From NCBI GenBank assembly GCA_042571405.1, contig JBHPHU010000005.1:1-61706 (forward strand): DNA of 61,706 nucleotides, in the 5' to 3' direction. Positions within the stretch are counted from its first letter, which is position 1. The number at the start of each line of letters is the position of its first letter. A program made the translations under genes and the position numbers. Origin of the DNA: Candidatus Omnitrophota bacterium. Its GTDB lineage: Bacteria; Omnitrophota; Gorgyraeia; Gorgyraeales; Gorgyraeaceae. Shown here in pieces: positions 19,256-49,687 of this stretch. Below the pieces are notes generated by a model. It did no database searches. It was given only the letters and a program-made list of their open reading frames with translations, and was not told the origin of the DNA.

Positions 19256-20429
19256 AAGCGTTTTAATAATAGTAGAGAATCTATCCGTACCTTTTGACAG
19301 GCGCGTGTGGCTGGAAGCAAGGGCGTTAAAAGAGGACGGGCATGGCGTCAGTGTTATTTGCCCCAGGGCCAAAGAAGATAAAGGCTTTGAAATACTCGAA
19401 GGCATAAATATATACAGGTATAAGCCTGCCCCGGATACAAAGGGATTTTTAAGCTACGTGTTCGAATTTTCGTATTGTTTTGCCATGACATTTTTATTGA
19501 GCGCATGGATAGCCGTCAGGCATGGCTTTGACATAATCCACGCGTGCAATCCGCCGGATACATTTTTTGTAATAGGACTGTTTTATAAGTTATTTGGAAA
19601 GAAGTTCTATTTTGACCAGCATGATCTTTGCCCTGAGGTATATCTTGCGAAATACGGCATAAATAAAAAGGATTTTCTTTATAAGGCCCTTCTTATGCTG
19701 GAATTCCTGACGTATAAAACAGCGGATAAGGTCATTGTTACGAATAATTCTTACAGGCAGCTAGCTATAGCGAGGGGAAAGCTGAATCCTGAAAAGGTAG
19801 TCGTGGTCAGGACATCTCCTGAATTAGAAAGATTTAAAAAGACTCCTTCTGACGCGGCGCTTCGCCGCGGAAAAAAATTTCTTGTTTCTTATCTTGGCGT
19901 CATGGCCCCCCAGGATGGCGTGGATTATCTTTTGGTCGCTATACACATCATTGTAAATAAGTATAAACGCGACGATATAATGTTTACTTTAATAGGGAGC
20001 GGAGATTCTATCAAGGATTTAAAGAATCTGAAAGAGGAGTTAGAGCTTGATAACGCTGTTTTGTTTACCGGCAGGATCCCCGACGAAGAACTTTTTAAGT
20101 ATTTGTCTACTTCTGATGTATGTGTCGCGCCGGATCCAAAAAGCCCTTTAAATGATAAATCTACCATGAATAAGATCCTGGAATATATGGCAATGGAAAG
20201 GCCAATAGTTTCTTTTGATTTAAAGGAATCCAGGTATTCAGCCGGTGATGCCGCGTTATATGCCAGGCCGAATAATATTGAAGAGTTTGCCAAAAATATT
20301 ATCGAACTGGTAGATGATGCGCGGCGCAGAGAGAAGATGGGAAGGGCCGGTTATGAGCGTCTCAAGGGTGAACTTTCATGGGAATATAACAAGAAAAGGT
20401 TAATAGATGCGTATAGAGGATCTATCTAA
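19245..20429 (+). CDS. Glycosyltransferase family 4
   Basis: ENLSVPFDRRVW, HACNPPD, DQHDLCPE and STMNKILEYMA motifs. Confidence 0.9.
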   Translation: MASKSVLIIVENLSVPFDRRVWLEARALKEDGHGVSVICPRAKEDKGFEILEGINIYRYKPAPDTKGFLSYVFEFSYCFAMTFLLSAWIAVRHGFDIIHACNPPDTFFVIGLFYKLFGKKFYFDQHDLCPEVYLAKYGINKKDFLYKALLMLEFLTYKTADKVIVTNNSYRQLAIARGKLNPEKVVVVRTSPELERFKKTPSDAALRRGKKFLVSYLGVMAPQDGVDYLLVAIHIIVNKYKRDDIMFTLIGSGDSIKDLKNLKEELELDNAVLFTGRIPDEELFKYLSTSDVCVAPDPKSPLNDKSTMNKILEYMAMERPIVSFDLKESRYSAGDAALYARPNNIEEFAKNIIELVDDARRREKMGRAGYERLKGELSWEYNKKRLIDAYRGSI

Positions 20430-22491
20430 GAAAATAATAGCAGGCGCGCTTTTGGCATCGTTCGCGTTTTTTCCTGTGGACCTGTTCAAGGGAAAAGAAG
20501 AGGATTGGTTCCCTTTCCATATCCCATGGAATTACTGCGAAGACTCCAGGCTGGATTTTAGTTTCCTGCTGGACTCGCCCGCAGGGAAACATGGTTTTTT
20601 AACGGTAAAGGACGGACATTTTTATTTCGAAGACGGGAAAAGGGCGAGATTCTGGGGGGTAAATATACATTCTGACACGGCGTGTTTTCCTACGCGTAAA
20701 CAGGCGGAGGATGTCTCAAAGAGGCTTGCCCAGCTGGGCTGTAACATAGTGAGGATGCATTTTCTCGACAATGAAGAGCCGCATGGGGTAATAGAATCGC
20801 ATCGCAATGACTCGCAGCATCTTTCAGGGTCGCAGATGGATAGGCTGGATTATTTCATTTATCAATTGAAGCGGAACGGCATATATGTATGTTTTGACGT
20901 ATTGGGTCTAGGGGTCAGGGCATTCAAGAAAGATGACATGCTGCCTGAATTAAAAGGTATGCCTAGGGGCGCGAGAGGGATCTCGTTTTTCAATAAACGC
21001 ATTATAGAATTGAGCAAACAATTTGCGTTTGATTTTTTGAGCCATGTAAATCCGTACACAGGAGTTAATTATCTGGACGATCCGGCAATTGCCTTTGTAG
21101 AGATGACCAATGAGAATTCTCTCTTTTTTAAAAGCTGCAGGGATTTTCCGGCTTACTACGAGAATGAGATAGAGGGTTTATGGAAAAAATGGCTTGCTGG
21201 TAAGGACAGGGACGGAGACAGCAAAGTGGGCTATTGGGGCGATGACAGGGAATTTTTATATGAACTTACGGATCAATATCAGAGGGATATGCATGAGTAT
21301 CTTCGCTCCATAGGTGTGAAGGTCCCAATAGGGGCTTCGAATTTACCATACGACAATCTGATGCTACTGGCGGATACTCGCATGGATTTTTCCGATATTC
21401 ACGTGTACTGGGATCTATGTGATTCCATGGATAAGATACACAACAGGTCCCTTGTGAAACAGAGCCATACAAATCCCAGGACAATAGTCAATACAATAGG
21501 CATAGCAAAGGTCGCTAAAAAACCCCTGGTATCTACTGAATGGGGAAGTAATTGGCCCAATGAATGGAGATCGGTCGATATGCTGAGCACAGCGTCTTAT
21601 GCGGCTTTGAACGATTGGGACGCATTGTTTTTATATTCCTATAATGGCGGTTATGTCTCTAACTGGGATAATCTTGAAAACAGGCTTTATTTTGGCACGG
21701 TAGTGTTTAATGATCCGGCAAAGATGGGGCTTTTTTCATTGACCGCGCTTATGTTCTTAAGGAACGACATACAAAAATCGTCAAAGGTGTATACGGTGCG
21801 TTATCCCGTAGAGCTGCTATTTAAGATGGATGATGAGTGGGCCGATAGATCAAGATTGGCAGGCGCGGCGTATACAGCCAGAGTTGAAAAAATATTTTAC
21901 AAAAATAATGAAGGCGGCCCAGAGGCTGAAGTCGACTATCCCGATTTTAAGGAGTTGTCGAGCAAGGACGGGAAGGTAGTTTCCGACACGGGCCAGATTA
22001 TCAGGGATTTCAAAAAAGGCGTTTTTATGCTAAAAGCTCCGAGGGTATTTTCTTTTTCAGGATTTTTGTCAGGGGAGCGAGATGAGGGGTTTCAGGGCGT
22101 AAGATTTTCTACAGATGAGGATTTCGCAACTTTTACGGTTATTTCCATGGATGATAAAGATATATCTGTATCCAAGCGGCTTTTACTGGCTGTAGTCGGA
22201 CGCGCTCAAAACAAAGACCAGAAACTCGCTCCGCATATCACTAAACGTCCGGACGATCTTCGCAGGGACGTATATATATTAAATAAGGGGAAAAAGCCGA
22301 TAATAATAGAAGATATAGCAGGGAATATTTTTATGGAAAAGACCAGGAAAGATAAAGGATTAATGGTGTTTTCTCTGGATGAGAAGGGGCGCAGGAAAGA
22401 AGCTGTTCCTGTCAAGATTGAGCGCGGCGGCTATAGCTTTGATATCTCTGGCGCTTACCAGACTATTTATTATGAAATCATAAGGATGTAA
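20407..22491 (+). CDS. Putative glycoside hydrolase (GH-A clan-like TIM barrel), probably exported
   Basis: PAGKHGF, RFWGVN, G.NIVRMH, HVNPYTG...DPAIA..E.TNEN and PLVSTEW motifs. Confidence 0.65.
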   Translation: MRIEDLSKKIIAGALLASFAFFPVDLFKGKEEDWFPFHIPWNYCEDSRLDFSFLLDSPAGKHGFLTVKDGHFYFEDGKRARFWGVNIHSDTACFPTRKQAEDVSKRLAQLGCNIVRMHFLDNEEPHGVIESHRNDSQHLSGSQMDRLDYFIYQLKRNGIYVCFDVLGLGVRAFKKDDMLPELKGMPRGARGISFFNKRIIELSKQFAFDFLSHVNPYTGVNYLDDPAIAFVEMTNENSLFFKSCRDFPAYYENEIEGLWKKWLAGKDRDGDSKVGYWGDDREFLYELTDQYQRDMHEYLRSIGVKVPIGASNLPYDNLMLLADTRMDFSDIHVYWDLCDSMDKIHNRSLVKQSHTNPRTIVNTIGIAKVAKKPLVSTEWGSNWPNEWRSVDMLSTASYAALNDWDALFLYSYNGGYVSNWDNLENRLYFGTVVFNDPAKMGLFSLTALMFLRNDIQKSSKVYTVRYPVELLFKMDDEWADRSRLAGAAYTARVEKIFYKNNEGGPEAEVDYPDFKELSSKDGKVVSDTGQIIRDFKKGVFMLKAPRVFSFSGFLSGERDEGFQGVRFSTDEDFATFTVISMDDKDISVSKRLLLAVVGRAQNKDQKLAPHITKRPDDLRRDVYILNKGKKPIIIEDIAGNIFMEKTRKDKGLMVFSLDEKGRRKEAVPVKIERGGYSFDISGAYQTIYYEIIRM

Positions 22492-22493
22492 CT

Positions 22494-23906
22494 ATGTTAA
22501 GGGAGAAGGATCAACTTTTTAGAAGATTATTAATGCTGTCAGATGCGGCCATGATCTGTGTCTCATTTTTTGTCGCTTATGTATTTAGACAGAATATAGA
22601 GATACTGGGGCAACTCTATTCTCTGTCTAAATATTTTAACATATTGGCCCTGGTCTTGTTTTCATGGATAATCGCATTGCGTTACACAGGTCTTTATGAA
22701 TCGTTAAGGAGAGAGAATCTATTCGGGATAACGCGCCGTATAATAAAAAGCGCTTTTTTTGTCATGGTAGTATCTATAGGCGCGATATTTATATTTAAGA
22801 TGGAATTCATAAGCAGGACCTTTATATTGGCCCTGCTTTTTGTGACGAGTTTATTTTTGGTATTCGAGAGATGGTTCGTGGCATCCTGCTTGAGAACTTT
22901 CAGGAAGAAAGGTTATAACTTTAGAAATATTTTGGTAGTGGGCACAGGGCCCAGGGCGGAGAATTTTATAGGACTTGTTCACAAGCATGATGAATGGGGC
23001 CTTAGGATTATCGGCATAATAGACGCTGAAAAAAAGATGCTGGGAAAGACTATAGCCGGGGAAAAGGTGATAGGGCTTCTAAAGGATATACCAAAGATAC
23101 TTATTGAGAACGTAGTGGATGAGGCAATGTTTATAATACCCAGGAAGTGGATACCTTTTATAGAAGAGAGTCTTTTGGCCTGCGAGGTGCAGGGCGTTAA
23201 GACAAATCTTGCCGCTGATTTTTTTAATATGAAGATATCGAGCTGGAGCTCCGGAGAGGTCGGAGGCGTGCCTACTCTGGGGTTTAACACAACAGTTGGC
23301 GAAGAATGGCAATTGTTAGTTAAGAGGTTATCTGATATACTATTATCGTTAGCAGGCATAGTGATTACCCTGCCTATTTTGATAGGAACGGGCATCGCTA
23401 TAAAGATTCTTTCGCGGGGCCCCGCGATATTTAAACAAACAAGAAGCGGCCTCAATGGCAGGCGGTTTGTGATGTATAAATTCAGGACCATGGTGGAAGG
23501 CGCGGAGAATGGGTTAGACAAACTTCGCACCCATAATGAAATGGACGGGCCTGTATTTAAGATGAACAGGGATCCGAGGGTTACTGGATTCGGAAAGTTT
23601 TTACGCAGGAGCAGTATAGATGAATTGCCGCAGCTTTTTAATGTGCTGAAGGGCGAGATGTCTATAGTAGGGCCGAGACCGCCTATACCATCAGAAGTGG
23701 AGAATTACCAGATTTGGCAGAGGAGACGTCTTAGCATGAAGCCAGGGCTTACTTGCTTATGGCAGATAAATGGACGCAATAATGTAGACTTTGAGGAATG
23801 GATGAAGCTGGATTTAAAATATATAGATAATTGGTCATTGGCGTTGGATCTAAAGATTTTGTTAAAAACAGTACCCGCTGTCCTGTTTTCAATAGGCGCG
23901 AGGTAA
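22494..23906 (+). CDS. Polyprenyl-phosphate sugar phosphotransferase (priming GT, WcaJ/CpsE-like)
   Basis: Four N-terminal TMs, a CoA-binding-like domain, and KFRTM, DPRVT, DELPQL, GPRP and PGLT motifs. Confidence 0.92.
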   Translation: MLREKDQLFRRLLMLSDAAMICVSFFVAYVFRQNIEILGQLYSLSKYFNILALVLFSWIIALRYTGLYESLRRENLFGITRRIIKSAFFVMVVSIGAIFIFKMEFISRTFILALLFVTSLFLVFERWFVASCLRTFRKKGYNFRNILVVGTGPRAENFIGLVHKHDEWGLRIIGIIDAEKKMLGKTIAGEKVIGLLKDIPKILIENVVDEAMFIIPRKWIPFIEESLLACEVQGVKTNLAADFFNMKISSWSSGEVGGVPTLGFNTTVGEEWQLLVKRLSDILLSLAGIVITLPILIGTGIAIKILSRGPAIFKQTRSGLNGRRFVMYKFRTMVEGAENGLDKLRTHNEMDGPVFKMNRDPRVTGFGKFLRRSSIDELPQLFNVLKGEMSIVGPRPPIPSEVENYQIWQRRRLSMKPGLTCLWQINGRNNVDFEEWMKLDLKYIDNWSLALDLKILLKTVPAVLFSIGAR

Positions 23907-23917
23907 CGGAGGTCTGT

Positions 23918-24481
23918 ATGGGAAGGATATTTTCAATAGTTTTGGTTCTTTGTTTTATCTTATCAGGTTGTTCAAGCCTTCTTAGCGAAGGGGATAAGCG
24001 TGTAGTCGCGCAGGTAGATAAATACAAGATGAACGTAGAGGATCTGAAATATGAATTAGAAAACATCCCTCATGATGAAACGGAGTGGCTAAATACAAAA
24101 AAAGGCAGGATGGAATATATAGACAGATTGCTGGAAAAAGAGATGCTTCTCCAGGAGGCGCAGCGCCAGGGCCTGGACAGGAAAAAGGATTTTATGAAGA
24201 GCATTGAGAGTCATTGGGAGCAGGCGCTTTTAAGGCTTTTGCTTGAGAAAAAGAGCAAGGAGATCTCAAGCCTGATCCATGTCTATGATAATGAGATAGA
24301 GGAATATTACAGGGAAAGCGGCGAGGATTTGCCTCTTTCAAAGGTTCGAGGTGATATAAAAAGGGCTATTAGGCAAGGAAAAGAAACAGAGGCAATGATG
24401 ATATGGATAAAGAAATTGAGAGGAAAAACATATATAAAGATAAACGATAAACTTCTGGAAGAGGTGTTATCCAGCAGATAA
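23918..24481 (+). CDS. Lipoprotein with a SurA N-terminal-like chaperone domain and no PPIase domain
   Basis: GGAGG RBS, lipobox LSGC, VVAQVD, LLQEAQRQGLD and YDNEIEEYY. Confidence 0.7.
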   Translation: MGRIFSIVLVLCFILSGCSSLLSEGDKRVVAQVDKYKMNVEDLKYELENIPHDETEWLNTKKGRMEYIDRLLEKEMLLQEAQRQGLDRKKDFMKSIESHWEQALLRLLLEKKSKEISSLIHVYDNEIEEYYRESGEDLPLSKVRGDIKRAIRQGKETEAMMIWIKKLRGKTYIKINDKLLEEVLSSR

Positions 24482-24493
24482 AAGGAGGGTGTC

Positions 24494-25093
24494 ATGGCGA
24501 AATATAAGCGCAGGCATTATTTTATAAACAAGGGCTTTCAGTCAGAGTTTATATTGAAATTTTGTATATTGGTAGCAGTCGGGTGCGTGCTATTTGGGGT
24601 AATTTTATACGCATTTTCCAGTCATACGCTTACTACGTCTTTCGAAAATTCAAGGCTGGTAGTAAAGAGCACAGCTGATTATATACTGCCTGGTTTGCTA
24701 TTTGGAGGGCTTATAGTGGGCTTACTCTTGGCAATAGCGGCAAGTATCGTAGTACTTTTCATGACACATCGGCTGGCAGGACCCATGTACAGGTTTGAAA
24801 AATATGCTCAGAAGATCGGGAATGGCGAACTAGCGCCTGATTTGAGGATAAGGGAGAAAGACCAGTTTCAGAGCCTTGTCAGCGCTTTTAACAATATGAC
24901 CCAGGGCCTTAGTGTCGGGCTTTTAAAGGTGGTCGGTGTTTCAGAAAAACTGGACAATTTGATCGAAGAACTTACAGACAGCTCAAACAAGGAGCTATTG
25001 TTGAAAGAGGACATAAAGAAGATAGTTTCTGAATTAAAGAAGGATAAAAAGGATCTCAATAAAGCGCTTTCGTATTTCAAGATAAGTCATTAA
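24494..25093 (+). CDS. Two-TM HAMP-domain membrane protein
   Basis: RRHYFI...FQ N-terminus, two TMs, THRLAGP...IREKDQF...FNNM HAMP and a coiled coil. Confidence 0.75.
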   Translation: MAKYKRRHYFINKGFQSEFILKFCILVAVGCVLFGVILYAFSSHTLTTSFENSRLVVKSTADYILPGLLFGGLIVGLLLAIAASIVVLFMTHRLAGPMYRFEKYAQKIGNGELAPDLRIREKDQFQSLVSAFNNMTQGLSVGLLKVVGVSEKLDNLIEELTDSSNKELLLKEDIKKIVSELKKDKKDLNKALSYFKISH

Positions 25094-25110
25094 TTTACCC
25101 AAGGGCTGAT

Positions 25111-25671
25111 ATGAAAATTAAAATAGGTATTATTTTAATTATCGCATGTTTCGCGCTTAATGCCGCGGATTTTGCTTATTCGCAAGAGAAGGAATGGAAT
25201 ATATTTTCGACTAGATTTTGCGATGTATTCTATGAAAAGGATGTAAATTTAAAATTAGTGAACAGGCGTATTAATCTCAGGTTTTCTGATTTTTACAACC
25301 CCCGCAGTTACAGGGAAAAAGCAGATCTATCAATGGAGGAGGTCCTGTCTGACAAATTTGATGCCGTGTTTATGAAAGTAGAAGAAATACTAGATATGTT
25401 TCCTTCCAAGGTACACGTAGCTATCCATATTTACAAGACAAAACATGGCTTGAATGAGGCATACGAAGGCATATTTGGTCAATCAAATACAGCAGAGTCG
25501 TTTTATGTTTACAAGACCAACACCATTTACACCACAGAACGCGCAATAAGGGAAGGCCTTCTCGCCCACGAGATGGCCCATTGCATAGTAGACCACTACT
25601 TTGTAATTTTACCGCCTAGAAAAGTCCAGGAAATGCTCGCGGTTTACGCAGACATTCATCTAAAAGATTAG
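25111..25671 (+). CDS. Exported protein with HEXXH (zincin-like) motif
   Basis: Signal peptide ending AYS; LAHEMAH followed by QEMLA. Confidence 0.65.
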   Translation: MKIKIGIILIIACFALNAADFAYSQEKEWNIFSTRFCDVFYEKDVNLKLVNRRINLRFSDFYNPRSYREKADLSMEEVLSDKFDAVFMKVEEILDMFPSKVHVAIHIYKTKHGLNEAYEGIFGQSNTAESFYVYKTNTIYTTERAIREGLLAHEMAHCIVDHYFVILPPRKVQEMLAVYADIHLKD

Positions 25672-25682
25672 TAAGATTTTAC

Positions 25683-25711
25683 TTGCAAAAACACCGGATA
25701 TATGTTATACT
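25683..25711 (+). promoter_or_regulatory. Sigma70-type promoter
   Basis: TTGCAA-17 bp-TATACT with an extended -10 TGn. Confidence 0.6.
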
Positions 25712-25785
25712 TATATAAGCATTTAAAAAGTATTAAGGTTTCCTTTTGGCAGTGTCAGAAGTGTAATCTTAATCAGGGGGGATAT

Positions 25786-27222
25786 ATGAGAAAGATAGTA
25801 TCTATAATAATAGTATTTAGCATGCTAACGATTGCCTCTGCGATGGCTAAACAAGATGCAGATGTGTGCCGGGTTAGATGCAGGGTTGATGAGGGAGTTA
25901 TATGCCTTGAGAGAGACCCTTGCGCGCCTGATAATGAGTATTTATTGGAGGCTGCAAAGAATTGCAGGGAGGAAGCTATTGCTAAGTATATGCCTATTAC
26001 GAAGTTGTTATTCGTGGACATCCTGTCACAGGTCATACGGCTGGACAAGGAATTTGCCCAGAATGTAGACAGGCTGAGCGATGAAGAGAGGTATATCTTA
26101 AAGGCAGAGCTCTTGAAGAATAAAGGCATAGATATATTTGCCGGTACCAAACCTTTGTCTCCTCTTACAAGAGAAGAGATGGCCCTGGTATTAAAGAATA
26201 TAACCGTAGAAAAATATTTGGGGCTTTCAAGCGGCCTGCCAAACCAGATGTTTGATCTAAAGAACGATGAGTTTATCGTGTATGACGTTGAAGTATATGT
26301 GGACGAAGGAAAAGGTTTTGAGCTATGGGAAAGAAAAAAGACGTTTGAGAAAAGTGAATCCAATGCAAAACAATATGTCGCAAAGCTTGATTCCTGTGAT
26401 GACGCAATGGCGGCATTCGGCGATAATGAAAAAGGTAAGATCCCTGAAGCAGGTTCGAGAATAAAAGTAGTGTATAAGTTCTTTGGCAGGGATGACGAGA
26501 TGGTGACAGAGTGCGAGGTAGCAATGCTTATGTCTGATCCGGATGTGGCAAGGGCATTAAAAGATAAATACAATCCTTCAAGGATGCTTACAAAAGCAAA
26601 TTTTGTAGACCTTCTTATAAAGATAAGGCATATAGAGAACAATCTGCCAAGGAATTATGTCGTACTTACGGAAAACGAGATATATAGACTTCAGACTGAG
26701 ACACTCAAGAAGTATGGCATTGATATATTTGTGGGCACTGACCCGAGTGAGTTATTGACTCGCGAGGAGCTGGCCAGGGTCTTGTACGATTCTCCTGTGC
26801 AAGAGATTGTCGGTATAAGTAATGGCAGTCAGGGCCAGAGTTTTGAGCTCAAGAATGCCGGTTTTGTCATATATGATTTACATGCTTATGTAGATGAAGG
26901 ATCCGGGTATGAAGAGTGGTACAAGAAAGAGACTTTTTTAGAGAGCGCTTTGCTGGACAAGGATTATGTAGTCAAGCTCGACTCAGGAAATTACGCGAGC
27001 GTTTATTTCGGAGACAATAAAAAAGGCAAGATCCCGACAGCAAGTTCTCCTATAAAGGTGACTTATAGGCTCTATGCCCCTGTCGCAATGGTTACAGAAG
27101 ATGATATTATCTGCGTGTTGGGCAGGATAGTGCCTGTAGCCGAGACATATATTCCACCTATGCCTCCACCTGAATTTCCGCCGCCTACCGACGGATATGA
27201 TGATCCTGCTTCGCACTTATGA
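25786..27222 (+). CDS. Exported protein with two 197-aa repeats (SLH-like plus baseplate-like module) and a Pro-rich tail
   Basis: Signal peptide from ATG 25786 (GGGGG RBS); repeat period 591 bp (FGDN codons at 26416 and 27007). Confidence 0.75.
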   Translation: MRKIVSIIIVFSMLTIASAMAKQDADVCRVRCRVDEGVICLERDPCAPDNEYLLEAAKNCREEAIAKYMPITKLLFVDILSQVIRLDKEFAQNVDRLSDEERYILKAELLKNKGIDIFAGTKPLSPLTREEMALVLKNITVEKYLGLSSGLPNQMFDLKNDEFIVYDVEVYVDEGKGFELWERKKTFEKSESNAKQYVAKLDSCDDAMAAFGDNEKGKIPEAGSRIKVVYKFFGRDDEMVTECEVAMLMSDPDVARALKDKYNPSRMLTKANFVDLLIKIRHIENNLPRNYVVLTENEIYRLQTETLKKYGIDIFVGTDPSELLTREELARVLYDSPVQEIVGISNGSQGQSFELKNAGFVIYDLHAYVDEGSGYEEWYKKETFLESALLDKDYVVKLDSGNYASVYFGDNKKGKIPTASSPIKVTYRLYAPVAMVTEDDIICVLGRIVPVAETYIPPMPPPEFPPPTDGYDDPASHL

Positions 27223-29050: not shown

Positions 29051-30268
29051 ATGAAAAATTCGATAAAGTTTTTGCCATTATTGATCCTTTATATCTTCAT
29101 TGTATTGATGGCTTCAAGTGACAGCTTTCAATATGACGAGGGGCGTTATGTATTGTTCACGCAAAACCTTTCCCAGGGTTTTTATTCTGATTCAAGCGAT
29201 ATGAATCTTTGGAATGGCCCAGGCTACCCGATTGTTTTACTGCCTTTCGCGCTTTTAAAATTACCCTGGTTAGCGGCTAAACTGTTAAATGCCATATTTT
29301 TATTTGGCGCAGTGGTCTATTTTTATCGTGCATTATGTTTTTATATCGCAAAACGCCCTGCTTTATGTTTTTCGTATCTTCTGGGTTTGTACCTGCCTTT
29401 TCTTAGGTATGTTCATGTACTGTTGACGGAAGTGTTTGCGATTTTTCTGATATCCGGTTTTTTATTTCACTTTTGCAGGATCTATAATGATGACGGTAAA
29501 AATAAGTGGATCTCGATTATAGCAGCGGCTTTTTATTTAGGCTACCTGGCCCTGACCAAGGTATTTTTTGGATATGTGATATTGGCCATGATAGCAGCGG
29601 CTTTGTTTTTGTATGTCTTGAAAAGGTCCGCTAAATTAAAAAAGACTTTGTTGGTTTGTTTATTTGCGCTTATTTTTTGCTCACCATATTTATATTATAC
29701 GCAGTCTTTGACAGGCAGAGTGTTTTACTGGGCCAATTCCGGCGGGAGTTCGCTGTATTGGATGAGCACTCCATATGATAATGAATTAGGCGATTGGCAT
29801 GACTATACTCGCGTGGCTAATGATCCCAGGCTGGCAAAAAATCATCTGGATTTTCTTAATAATATAGCGCATCTTAATTATGTTGAGATGGATGATGCGT
29901 TCAAAAAGAAGGCAATCTATAATATAAAACATTATCCCGTTAAGTTTTTTAAGAATTGGATAGCCAATATCGGCCGCATGTTATTTTCTTACCCGTTTTC
30001 CTATACGCCTCAGAAGCTGTCGACCTTTTTTTATCTTATACCGAATATGTTTATAGTGGTCCTTTCCTTTTTGTGCGCCTATCAAGGCTGGCGTAAGCGG
30101 AGCCAAATACCATATGAGATAGGTGCCTTACTTTTATTCGCACTTATTACATTTGGCGGCAGCAGCCTATTAAGCGCTTACGCCAGGCAGTTTGCTGTTA
30201 TTGTTCCCATCCTCGCGCTCTGGATGTCTTTTATCATGACGCGGCACTATTCCATTCTTGAACTATAA
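29051..30268 (+). CDS. Integral membrane glycosyltransferase (GT-C/ArnT-PMT-like)
   Basis: DE after TM1, PGYP, LTE and many TM helices. Confidence 0.65.
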   Translation: MKNSIKFLPLLILYIFIVLMASSDSFQYDEGRYVLFTQNLSQGFYSDSSDMNLWNGPGYPIVLLPFALLKLPWLAAKLLNAIFLFGAVVYFYRALCFYIAKRPALCFSYLLGLYLPFLRYVHVLLTEVFAIFLISGFLFHFCRIYNDDGKNKWISIIAAAFYLGYLALTKVFFGYVILAMIAAALFLYVLKRSAKLKKTLLVCLFALIFCSPYLYYTQSLTGRVFYWANSGGSSLYWMSTPYDNELGDWHDYTRVANDPRLAKNHLDFLNNIAHLNYVEMDDAFKKKAIYNIKHYPVKFFKNWIANIGRMLFSYPFSYTPQKLSTFFYLIPNMFIVVLSFLCAYQGWRKRSQIPYEIGALLLFALITFGGSSLLSAYARQFAVIVPILALWMSFIMTRHYSILEL

Positions 30269-49403: not shown

Positions 49404-49491
49404 GCCGGAGTGGCGGAATTGGCTGACGCGCACGACTCAAAATCGTGTGAGGCGACCCCTCGTGTGGGTTCGACTCCCACCTCCGGCACCA
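49404..49491 (+). tRNA. tRNA-Leu(CAA)
   Basis: GCCGGAG/CTCCGGC acceptor stem, CACGA-CTCAAAA-TCGTG anticodon arm, long variable arm, TTCGACT loop and encoded CCA. Confidence 0.96.
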
Positions 49492-49567: not shown

Positions 49568-49618
49568 GCCCCGTTCCAAATTGCCCGATTTTAAGAATGG
49601 GGCAATTTGGAATGGGGC
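49568..49618. repeat. 19-bp inverted repeat overlapping the tRNA-Ala 5' end
   Basis: GCCCCGTTCCAAATTGCCC / GGGCAATTTGGAATGGGGC with one G-U pair. Confidence 0.8.
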
Positions 49619-49687
49619 TGTAGTGAAGCGGGATCACACGACAATGGCATTGTCGCATCACGGGTTCGATTCCCGTCAGCTCCACCA
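49614..49687 (+). tRNA. tRNA-Ala(GGC)
   Basis: GGGGCTG/CAGCTCC acceptor with G3:U70, CGACA-ATGGCAT-TGTCG arm (A32/U38), TTCGATT loop and encoded CCA. Confidence 0.95.

Follow-up and report, generated by a model that had tools for sequence, protein, structure and literature searches.

Two described protein systems come closest to the gene examined here. Trimers of S-layer homology (SLH) domains, among them those of Paenibacillus alvei SpaA (6CWC), Bacillus anthracis Sap (3PYW/6BT4) and OmpM/SlpA, fold as a three-pronged spindle in which a three-helix core bears lobes, and passages of PMC6081394 give as their hallmarks a TRAE-type motif with an Arg residue at the core helices' N-terminal ends and a GIIxG loop. 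Wedge proteins of the gp6/gpJ type, found in the baseplates of contractile tails and contractile injection systems (CISs) and including T4 and KP1 gp6, phage P1 BplA, Cis11, a phiKZ baseplate protein and the TIGR02243 family, can carry an insertion domain that a part of PMC12237407 describes as peripheral and surface-exposed in the Streptomyces coelicolor CIS. Here we describe a gene at positions 25786-27222 of a 61,706-nucleotide stretch of Candidatus Omnitrophota DNA (assembly GCA_042571405.1, contig JBHPHU010000005.1; GTDB family Gorgyraeaceae), hereafter the window, whose 478-residue product joins features of both systems: two tandem units, each of which holds a baseplate-type beta module within a helical scaffold.

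The protein shares with SLH trimers the fold of three core helices with lobes, an N-terminal export signal, a gene placed beside wall-glycan genes and, in part, the hallmark motifs, with T-R-x-E-type sequences at core-helix N-termini and a GI..F.G loop resembling GIIxG, but it differs from them in having two tandem spindles, in each of which a beta-sandwich takes the place of the third lobe helix. With the wedge proteins it shares the beta domain itself, down to the motifs LG.S.G..Q.F.L, VDEG.G...W and FGD..G.IP...I...Y; unlike them, it has neither the N-terminal core-bundle helices nor the C-terminal Baseplate_J part, and it has instead a signal peptide, two copies of the domain and a different scaffold. 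The evidence supports the presence of a baseplate domain in a cellular protein that carries a Sec-type export signal, in a lineage where no contractile-tail genes were found. As an explanation of the whole, we consider it moderately probable that this is an SLH-fold envelope protein that anchors to wall glycan and carries its captured baseplate domains as docking surfaces.

Profile, alignment and structural comparisons agree on the identity of the beta domain, of which each unit contains one copy of about 95 residues. NCBIfam TIGR02243 (‘putative baseplate assembly protein’) matches the protein with E 9.9e-13, and the score of 47.5 bits lies below the 155.8-bit cut-off because the match covers only positions 354-445 of the 659 in the profile; PHROGs phrog_1369 (‘baseplate protein’, E 4.6e-14) and phrog_219 (‘baseplate wedge subunit’, E 4.4e-10) each match in two stretches. 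A phmmer search over 1.84 billion representative proteins gave 220 matches at E<=1e-3, and those outside the protein’s own family included proteins of 470-1000 residues, aligned at their residues ~160-260; PF04865 (Baseplate_J) was present in 13 of 15 such distant matches that were scanned, in 12 of them above the cut-off. When the family alignment (A1, 63 sequences) was compared by hhalign with an alignment of 56 Baseplate_J proteins (A2), the match reached a probability of 99.7% (E 8e-26, 133 columns), and the A2 profile in turn matches S. coelicolor Cis11 (9gtp_1K, E 3.8e-63) and T4 gp6 (5hx2_D, E 2.9e-28). An AlphaFold2 model built with A1 (mean predicted local distance difference test, pLDDT, 77.3; predicted template modelling score 0.65; residues 17-45 and the tail below 50) had as its best Foldseek matches in the PDB the phage P1 baseplate (E 1.7e-7, 1.2e-6 and 3.2e-5) and the S. 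coelicolor CIS baseplate (1.7e-5), and it also matched T4-like gp6 of the KP1 baseplate (1.3e-4). Across the 48,161 chains compared by VIA-align, the beta module superposed on P1 BplA (9ay5_Y) with Z 13.3 and a root-mean-square deviation (rmsd) of 1.8 A over 94 residues, followed by S. coelicolor Cis11 (9gtp_1K, Z 12.1), T4-like gp6 (9f4a_AX, Z 10.3) and the phiKZ protein (9xqs_A, Z 10.2); rmsd values for these four span 1.8-2.2 A, the next row stands at Z 7.5, and the lower-ranked neighbors at Z 5-7 include tailspike N-terminal domains and pilins. The beta module is therefore a true homologue of the insertion domain of gp6/gpJ-type baseplate wedges, as an earlier note on this DNA had recognized from the sequence pattern.

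In known wedges the module occupies residues ~288-394 of Cis11 and ~167-275 of T4 gp6, and the minimal wedges Mu gp47, pyocin PA0618 and diffocin TRI-2 align only from position ~261 of the A2 profile on; since these wedges do without the module, it is an accessory insertion domain. Other sequence searches returned little. A Pfam scan at E<=10 found neither PF04865 nor the gp6-like N-terminal helical family PF21379 and nothing significant at all (DUF4296 and DUF3475, at E 0.03-0.06, were dismissed as noise); a search of PDB sequences gave chance-level matches only; the family profile retrieved from the PDB sequences 9ay5_Y alone, at E 0.049; and tblastn against 50,697 phage records gave no match at 1e-3. 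Nor does the lineage appear to possess the machine from which the domain derives. None of the 38 family genomes, 22 of them of high quality, yielded Baseplate_J, PF04984 (sheath) or PF04965 (gp25), tube and spike families not having been searched separately; the protein’s own genome (60% complete) likewise gave no Baseplate_J, sheath or gp25, and no tail family is among the Pfam matches of the open reading frames (ORFs) of the window, in keeping with the earlier remark that tail genes are missing nearby.

The remainder of each unit is helical, and its SLH-like character emerged most clearly from small relatives, exported proteins of 177-271 residues that phmmer matched to the helical module only. 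An alignment of 11 small helical-only proteins (A3) matches residues 265-336 of the target by hhalign with a probability of 99.1% (E 5.5e-19, 47% identity). The AlphaFold2 model of a small relative, with a core pLDDT above 93, gave Foldseek matches of which the 13 rows listed at ranks 1-15 are all SLH trimers (SpaA, Sap; probability 0.80-1.00, TM-score 0.40-0.52). In the VIA-align comparison of the same model only 3 chains reached Z>=5, all of them SLH domains (6cwc_A with Z 9.8 and 6bt4_A with Z 9.7, both aligned along 123 of 164-165 residues, and that of an S-layer cytochrome with Z 6.2), with the next at 4.3, and the full target model matched 6cwc_A and 6bt4_A with Z 6.5 and 6.4 over 125-130 residues, values to be read with the tool’s caveat that in helical proteins a Z below ~13 may mean a common arrangement only. 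The three-helix core and three lobes of the spindle are all seen in the small relative and more weakly in the target, in which the third lobe is replaced: the two units keep core helices 1 (TK..F), 2 (TREE) and 3 (VTE..) together with lobe helix 2 and the GI[DN]IF.G loop, and comparison of secondary structure between the two models indicates that the lobe helix of the third SLH-like repeat is swapped for the beta module in each. TREE stands before helices 129-136 and 326-334, with R129 conserved in 61/63 and R326 in 56/63 sequences; TK.. precedes core helix 1 and TE.. core helix 3; and GI[DN]IF.G, in place of GIIxG, has its glycine in 61/63 (G114) and 62/63 (G311). In the ESM Atlas, 16 of 30 feature matches of the small relative P0097 were SLH clusters (score 0.90-0.91), a weak lead with 143 shared features against a mark of 170, and the whole target returned nothing usable.

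Several results weigh against this account, and we consider them together. The Foldseek E-values of the small relative lie between 0.02 and 0.5, none at or below 1e-3; Pfam SLH (PF00395) matches neither the target nor the small relatives at E<=10, reaches only 2/63 family members (best E 0.035) and was found in 0 of 151 sampled Omnitrophota genomes at E<=1e-5; the small relatives do not retain TR.E; and sub-alignments of the presumed internal repeats of the small protein, compared by hhalign, fell in the expected register without significance (E 0.05, 9e-4 and 0.09). The pyruvyl transferase of the CsaB family (PF04230), which makes the classical SLH ligand, turned up in none of 5 carrier genomes, of which 4 are at least 91% complete, and the pyruvylated secondary cell wall polymer is therefore an unlikely ligand here. 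In passages of PMC6081394 a conserved SLH Trp lines the primary groove of SpaA, and the lobe replaced here would bear that residue, so classical ligand binding may be lost. The gene is also patchy within its family, being present in only 4/13 genomes of one genus, and a natural variant, P0070 (417 residues), lacks beta module 1 and the N-terminal Cys residues and keeps unit 2 and the tail, so that the first captured domain is dispensable in some lineage. We therefore call the helical part SLH-fold, the profile, TR.E and CsaB evidence going against membership of the SLH family; homology to SLH domains is probable but unproven. Of the SLH-like motif proposed in the earlier note, the fold and part of the motif are supported, without a significant SLH profile match.

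The 197-residue repeat of the earlier note is real: when the halves of the protein are compared by BLASTP, residues 71-249 pair with 268-445, an offset of 197 residues, at 45% identity over 179 residues (E 4e-50). A maximum-likelihood tree of 56 baseplate modules and, taken from every third row of A1, 21 modules each of beta1 and beta2, midpoint-rooted and built on few columns, separates beta1 and beta2 together from all baseplate modules (100/98) and resolves a beta1 clade (100/98) and a beta2 clade (97/84), a topology that points to a single capture of the beta domain, followed by duplication ahead of the diversification of the family. The direction of transfer, from baseplate to envelope protein, we infer from the distribution. 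Of the 38 genomes of the GTDB family, 21 carry a full-length copy, among them 13 of the 22 high-quality ones, and in a sample of 301 genomes of the phylum such copies are restricted to that family; five genomes of other families have the small form only, and the A3 profile finds the family in 13/301. The patchiness implies that the gene is not essential. Frames are intact in 19 of the 21 matching genomes; the orthologue in G309 (G309:C104:10071-11495) has an in-frame internal TAA, and what remains in G307 (G307:C24:3950-4087) is a fragment of 46 residues that contains a TGA. Both may point to decay of the gene, which would accord with its patchy occurrence.

The small helical proteins of other Omnitrophota lineages (P0088, P0097 and the ORFs of loci L021-L025; 166-196 residues) are also among the closest known proteins. 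In 3 of 5 loci of other families they occupy the slot of the target, behind the genes for a transferase, an EpsD-like protein, a HAMP protein and an HExxH protein, so the target is the expanded positional orthologue of this small SLH-fold protein. They have in common with it the helical module and a similar ..AE.Y.PP.. tail, ending in some cases in PASPI; unlike the target, they consist of a single unit, have no beta module and no Cys-rich N-terminus, and conserve TR.E poorly.

Export of the protein is indicated by its N-terminus, MRKIVSIIIVFSMLTIASAMA|KQ, in which a basic n-region, a hydrophobic core and an AxA site read as a Sec signal of the signal peptidase I type; this part of the earlier note agrees with the helix at residues 2-23 of the model, and no lipobox Cys is seen on inspection of the signal region. 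An upstream ATG at 25702 would give 506 residues, but the MRK/MKK start at 25786, where the ATG is preceded by a GGGGGG run, is the one used by 62 aligned relatives. Altogether 70 full-length or partial relatives were found, with identities of 49-89%. The mature protein (51.8 kDa, pI 4.8) has eight Cys residues, each kept in 60-63 of 63 relatives, and an acidic protein with eight conserved Cys fits an oxidizing extracytoplasmic compartment. At the other end, P474 is conserved in 60/63, A475 in 58/63 and H477 in 51/63 sequences, and the small relatives P0088 and P0097 and the L024 ORF end in a similar ...DPASPI. An extreme C-terminus of the form ...DPA[ST][HP][IL] after a Pro-rich stretch is thus common to the target family and to small relatives of other lineages; it differs from PEP-CTERM and LPXTG signals in having no transmembrane segment behind it. 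The protein’s own genome (60% complete) holds no paralogue and no further protein with a DPA[ST].[IL] end.

Which side of the outer membrane the protein reaches bears on any account of its function. LptE and BamD-like genes at 58.8-60.3 kb of the window make the organism probably diderm, and a Sec substrate that shows no outer-membrane sorting signal may stay in the periplasm, by analogy with the SLH domains of OmpM, which according to passages of PMC10628300 bind polyaminated peptidoglycan there. The metagenomic small relative P0156 (271 residues) carries a C-terminal beta extension with weak, non-significant matches to FlgD_ig (E 0.04) and to the Por_Secre_tail of the type IX secretion system (T9SS; E 0.07), a hint of possible passage across the outer membrane in some members of the family.

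In the explanation that we favor, the scaffold, two tandem SLH-fold three-pronged spindles, derives from a small SLH-fold protein (~155 residues when mature) of the same cassette slot; in the ancestor of the family the lobe helix of the third repeat was replaced by a beta-sandwich from a gp6/Cis11-type wedge of a contractile tail or CIS, and the whole unit with its captured domain was then duplicated. The SLH-like spindles would tether the protein, without covalent bonds, to modified peptidoglycan or a glycan linked to the wall, probably the polymer that the surrounding locus makes, by means of conserved T-R-E-E and T-K motifs at the N-terminal ends of their core helices. The two baseplate-derived domains, which in baseplates are peripheral insertions, would lie exposed and offer docking surfaces to a partner, protein or glycan, and the conserved Pro-rich tail would reach a further one. 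A bolder version, which we regard as quite doubtful, would make the protein a cell-borne ‘baseplate socket’, the duplicate captured domain docking, as it does in a baseplate, a specific partner such as a fibre-like protein, a surface structure of another cell or a phage or CIS particle, for attachment or tail interception, on the envelope of ultra-small and perhaps host-dependent Omnitrophota.

The surroundings of the gene fit an envelope function. By Pfam and NCBIfam matches, the first 45 kb of the window (1-45 kb) form a surface-glycan locus around it, with two Wzy_C proteins, several GT4 glycosyltransferases and a GT2, a GNAT protein, a deacetylase, a heparinase II/III-like protein, a UDP-glucose dehydrogenase, a DegT aminotransferase and an epimerase. 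All four genes of the cassette that precedes the target (Table 1) stand before it in the same order in 10 of 19 related loci, and the 186-residue HExxH...E gene lies directly upstream in 16 of the 17 loci with enough upstream DNA, being absent from L012; downstream genes differ between loci. Conserved beside the target slot across Omnitrophota classes, this 186-residue neighbor has invariant H153, E154, H157, D161, H162, E174, Y179 and H183 in 19 sequences, a gluzincin-like HEMxH...E..A.Y pattern, and no Pfam, NCBIfam or PDB sequence match; judged by its motif, it possibly represents an undescribed minimal metallopeptidase family. Two further proteins of the locus have no Pfam or NCBIfam match: a 694-residue protein (20407-22491, forward strand), whose gene is syntenic in several related loci, and a 405-residue multi-pass membrane protein (29051-30268, forward strand). 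Farther along the same strand, two tRNA genes (49404-49488 and 49614-49684) lie between accA and leuS.

Between the 186-residue gene and the target lies a sigma-70-like promoter. Promoter-like sites in this region are no commoner than in shuffled sequence (23 vs 21.7), yet CTTGC[AC]AA...TGgTATAAT is kept in 12 of 13 orthologous intergenic regions, L007 being the exception, which upholds the claim that the gene has a promoter of its own. Adjoining the -10 element in the same loci is an AT-rich leader box of about 22 nt, TATAAGTATTATAAAAGTATTT-like, whose nucleotides are conserved in 12 of 13 loci (L001-L019) although the proteins are only 54-85% identical; three sites within 4 mismatches occur in the protein’s own genome, the one at 25714-25735 among them, and Rfam has no family at this place. 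The box may act as a site of regulation or form an element of the leader.

Table 1. Positions, in the window, of the target gene, the segments of its product and the conserved elements upstream (aa, amino acid residues; TM, transmembrane).
Feature	Positions	Strand	Basis
Gene of 478-aa exported protein, stop included	25786-27222	+	ORF and translation
Signal peptide, aa 1-21, AMA/KQ cleavage site	25786-25848	+	Read from sequence; model helix 2-23
N-terminal Cys-rich region, aa 22-67 (C28, C32, C40, C46, C60)	25849-25986	+	Cys in 60-63/63; model pLDDT <50 at 17-45
Unit 1 SLH-like helices, aa 68-137 (core helices TKLLF and TREEM, loop GIDIFAG)	25987-26196	+	A3 profile E 3.9e-14; motif conservation; SLH trimers 6cwc_A, 6bt4_A over model residues 31-260
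Beta module 1, aa 138-235, gp6/Cis11-type insertion domain	26197-26490	+	phiKZ baseplate 9xqs_A Z 10.2, rmsd 2.2, 87 aa; phrog_1369 best stretch 156-228
Closing helices of unit 1, aa 236-264 (core helix VTECEV and an extra helix)	26491-26577	+	Helices 242-249, 252-262; T241 62/63, C243 63/63
Unit 2 SLH-like helices, aa 265-336 (TKANF, GIDIFVG, TREEL)	26578-26793	+	hhalign vs A3, 70 columns; motif conservation
Beta module 2, aa 337-432, gp6/Cis11-type insertion domain	26794-27081	+	9ay5_Y Z 13.3; 9gtp_1K Z 12.1; 9f4a_AX Z 10.3; TIGR02243 best stretch 341-428
Unit 2 closing core helix, aa 433-455 (VTEDDI...AETY)	27082-27150	+	Helix 438-447; E438, D439, D440 in 63/63
Pro-rich, probably disordered tail ending DPA[ST]H[IL], aa 456-478	27151-27219	+	pLDDT <50 at 450-460, 476-478
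Sigma-70-like promoter: TTGCAA, 17 nt, TG-extended TATACT	25683-25711	+	Consensus scan; conservation
Leader box, TATAAGYATT.AAAAGTATT-like	25714-25735	+	Adjoins -10; same 12/13 loci
Conserved four-gene cassette upstream of target	22494-25671	+	Family matches; synteny
EPS-type phosphoglycosyl transferase	22494-23906	+	TIGR03025, 1e-124
EpsD/SurA_N-like lipoprotein	23921-24481	+	3.7e-13; LSGC lipobox read from sequence
Two-TM HAMP membrane protein	24494-25093	+	Family match
186-aa exported HExxH...E protein	25111-25671	+	Motif

Other explanations share parts of this evidence. The earlier note proposed use as an S-layer, adhesin or phage decoy, and a true S-layer subunit or adhesin, exported past the outer membrane, anchored by its SLH part and displaying its baseplate domains outward, would suit an acidic 52-kDa mature protein with a scaffold of the fold found in S-layer proteins, a strong-looking conserved promoter with a near-consensus extended -10, the tailspike and pilin domains among the neighbors of the beta module, the extension of P0156 and the host-dependent lifestyles proposed for Omnitrophota in passages of PMC10066038. 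We nevertheless think it rather unlikely, since the LptE and BamD-like genes indicate a diderm and neither a sorting signal for the outer membrane nor a beta-barrel nor a lipobox can be seen in the target, and the patchy presence of the gene within the family argues against a core coat protein. The eight conserved Cys residues speak in the same direction, such a number being unusual for S-layer proteins. A different function is conceivable if the scaffold no longer binds wall polymers: the target could then be a substrate, inhibitor or adaptor of the HExxH...E (peptidase-MA-like) and HAMP neighbors, controlling assembly of the glycan of the locus. The constancy of the 186-residue gene upstream of the target and, in 3 of 5 loci, of small relatives, the invariance of H153, E154, H157, E174 and Y179 in the neighbor, the conserved C-terminal tail of the target and the five carriers in which CsaB was not found all accord with such a partnership, which we rate as unlikely even so, given that the peptidase nature of the neighbor is a matter of motif and that the separate conserved promoter between the two genes shows independent transcription.

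The baseplate origin of the beta modules invites two readings that concern phages or CISs directly. That the protein is a decoy, its captured domain mimicking the baseplate surface and titrating an assembly or receptor-binding partner of a phage or CIS, is suggested solely by that origin and by the exposed position of the domain in the S. coelicolor CIS; it seems very improbable to us, as PADLOC gave no significant match for the target or its neighbors, the setting is a glycan-biosynthesis locus and not a defence island, and an exported protein could not meet a tail assembled in the cytoplasm. That the gene is a remnant or working part of a prophage tail or extracellular CIS (eCIS) would explain its profile matches to baseplate families; the signal peptide, the presence of the insertion domain only, the 38 family genomes in which Baseplate_J, sheath and gp25 were not found, the stable chromosomal synteny with frames mostly intact and the phage records that yielded no match already contradict it, and we give it practically no credence.

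An SLH-type anchored envelope protein is thus of a known kind, and its phage-derived passenger is unprecedented: a full-text literature search returned no account of this protein, of such a fusion or of this domain outside baseplates, and the matched passages of the main text of Seymour et al. 2023 (PMC10066038) do not mention the protein. The family shows that a cellular envelope protein can take up, by exaptation, a structural domain hitherto described only within the baseplates of contractile tails, and it offers a clean, datable case, with one capture, one duplication and one bacterial family. What the gp6/Cis11 insertion domain does in baseplates is poorly defined, and a soluble version that is exported in two copies provides an easy route to what the domain binds. 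For the Omnitrophota, the helical scaffold brings to light a divergent SLH-fold family in a phylum for which profile searches had given no SLH, and it bears on how these uncultured, ultra-small diderm bacteria organize or tether their envelope.

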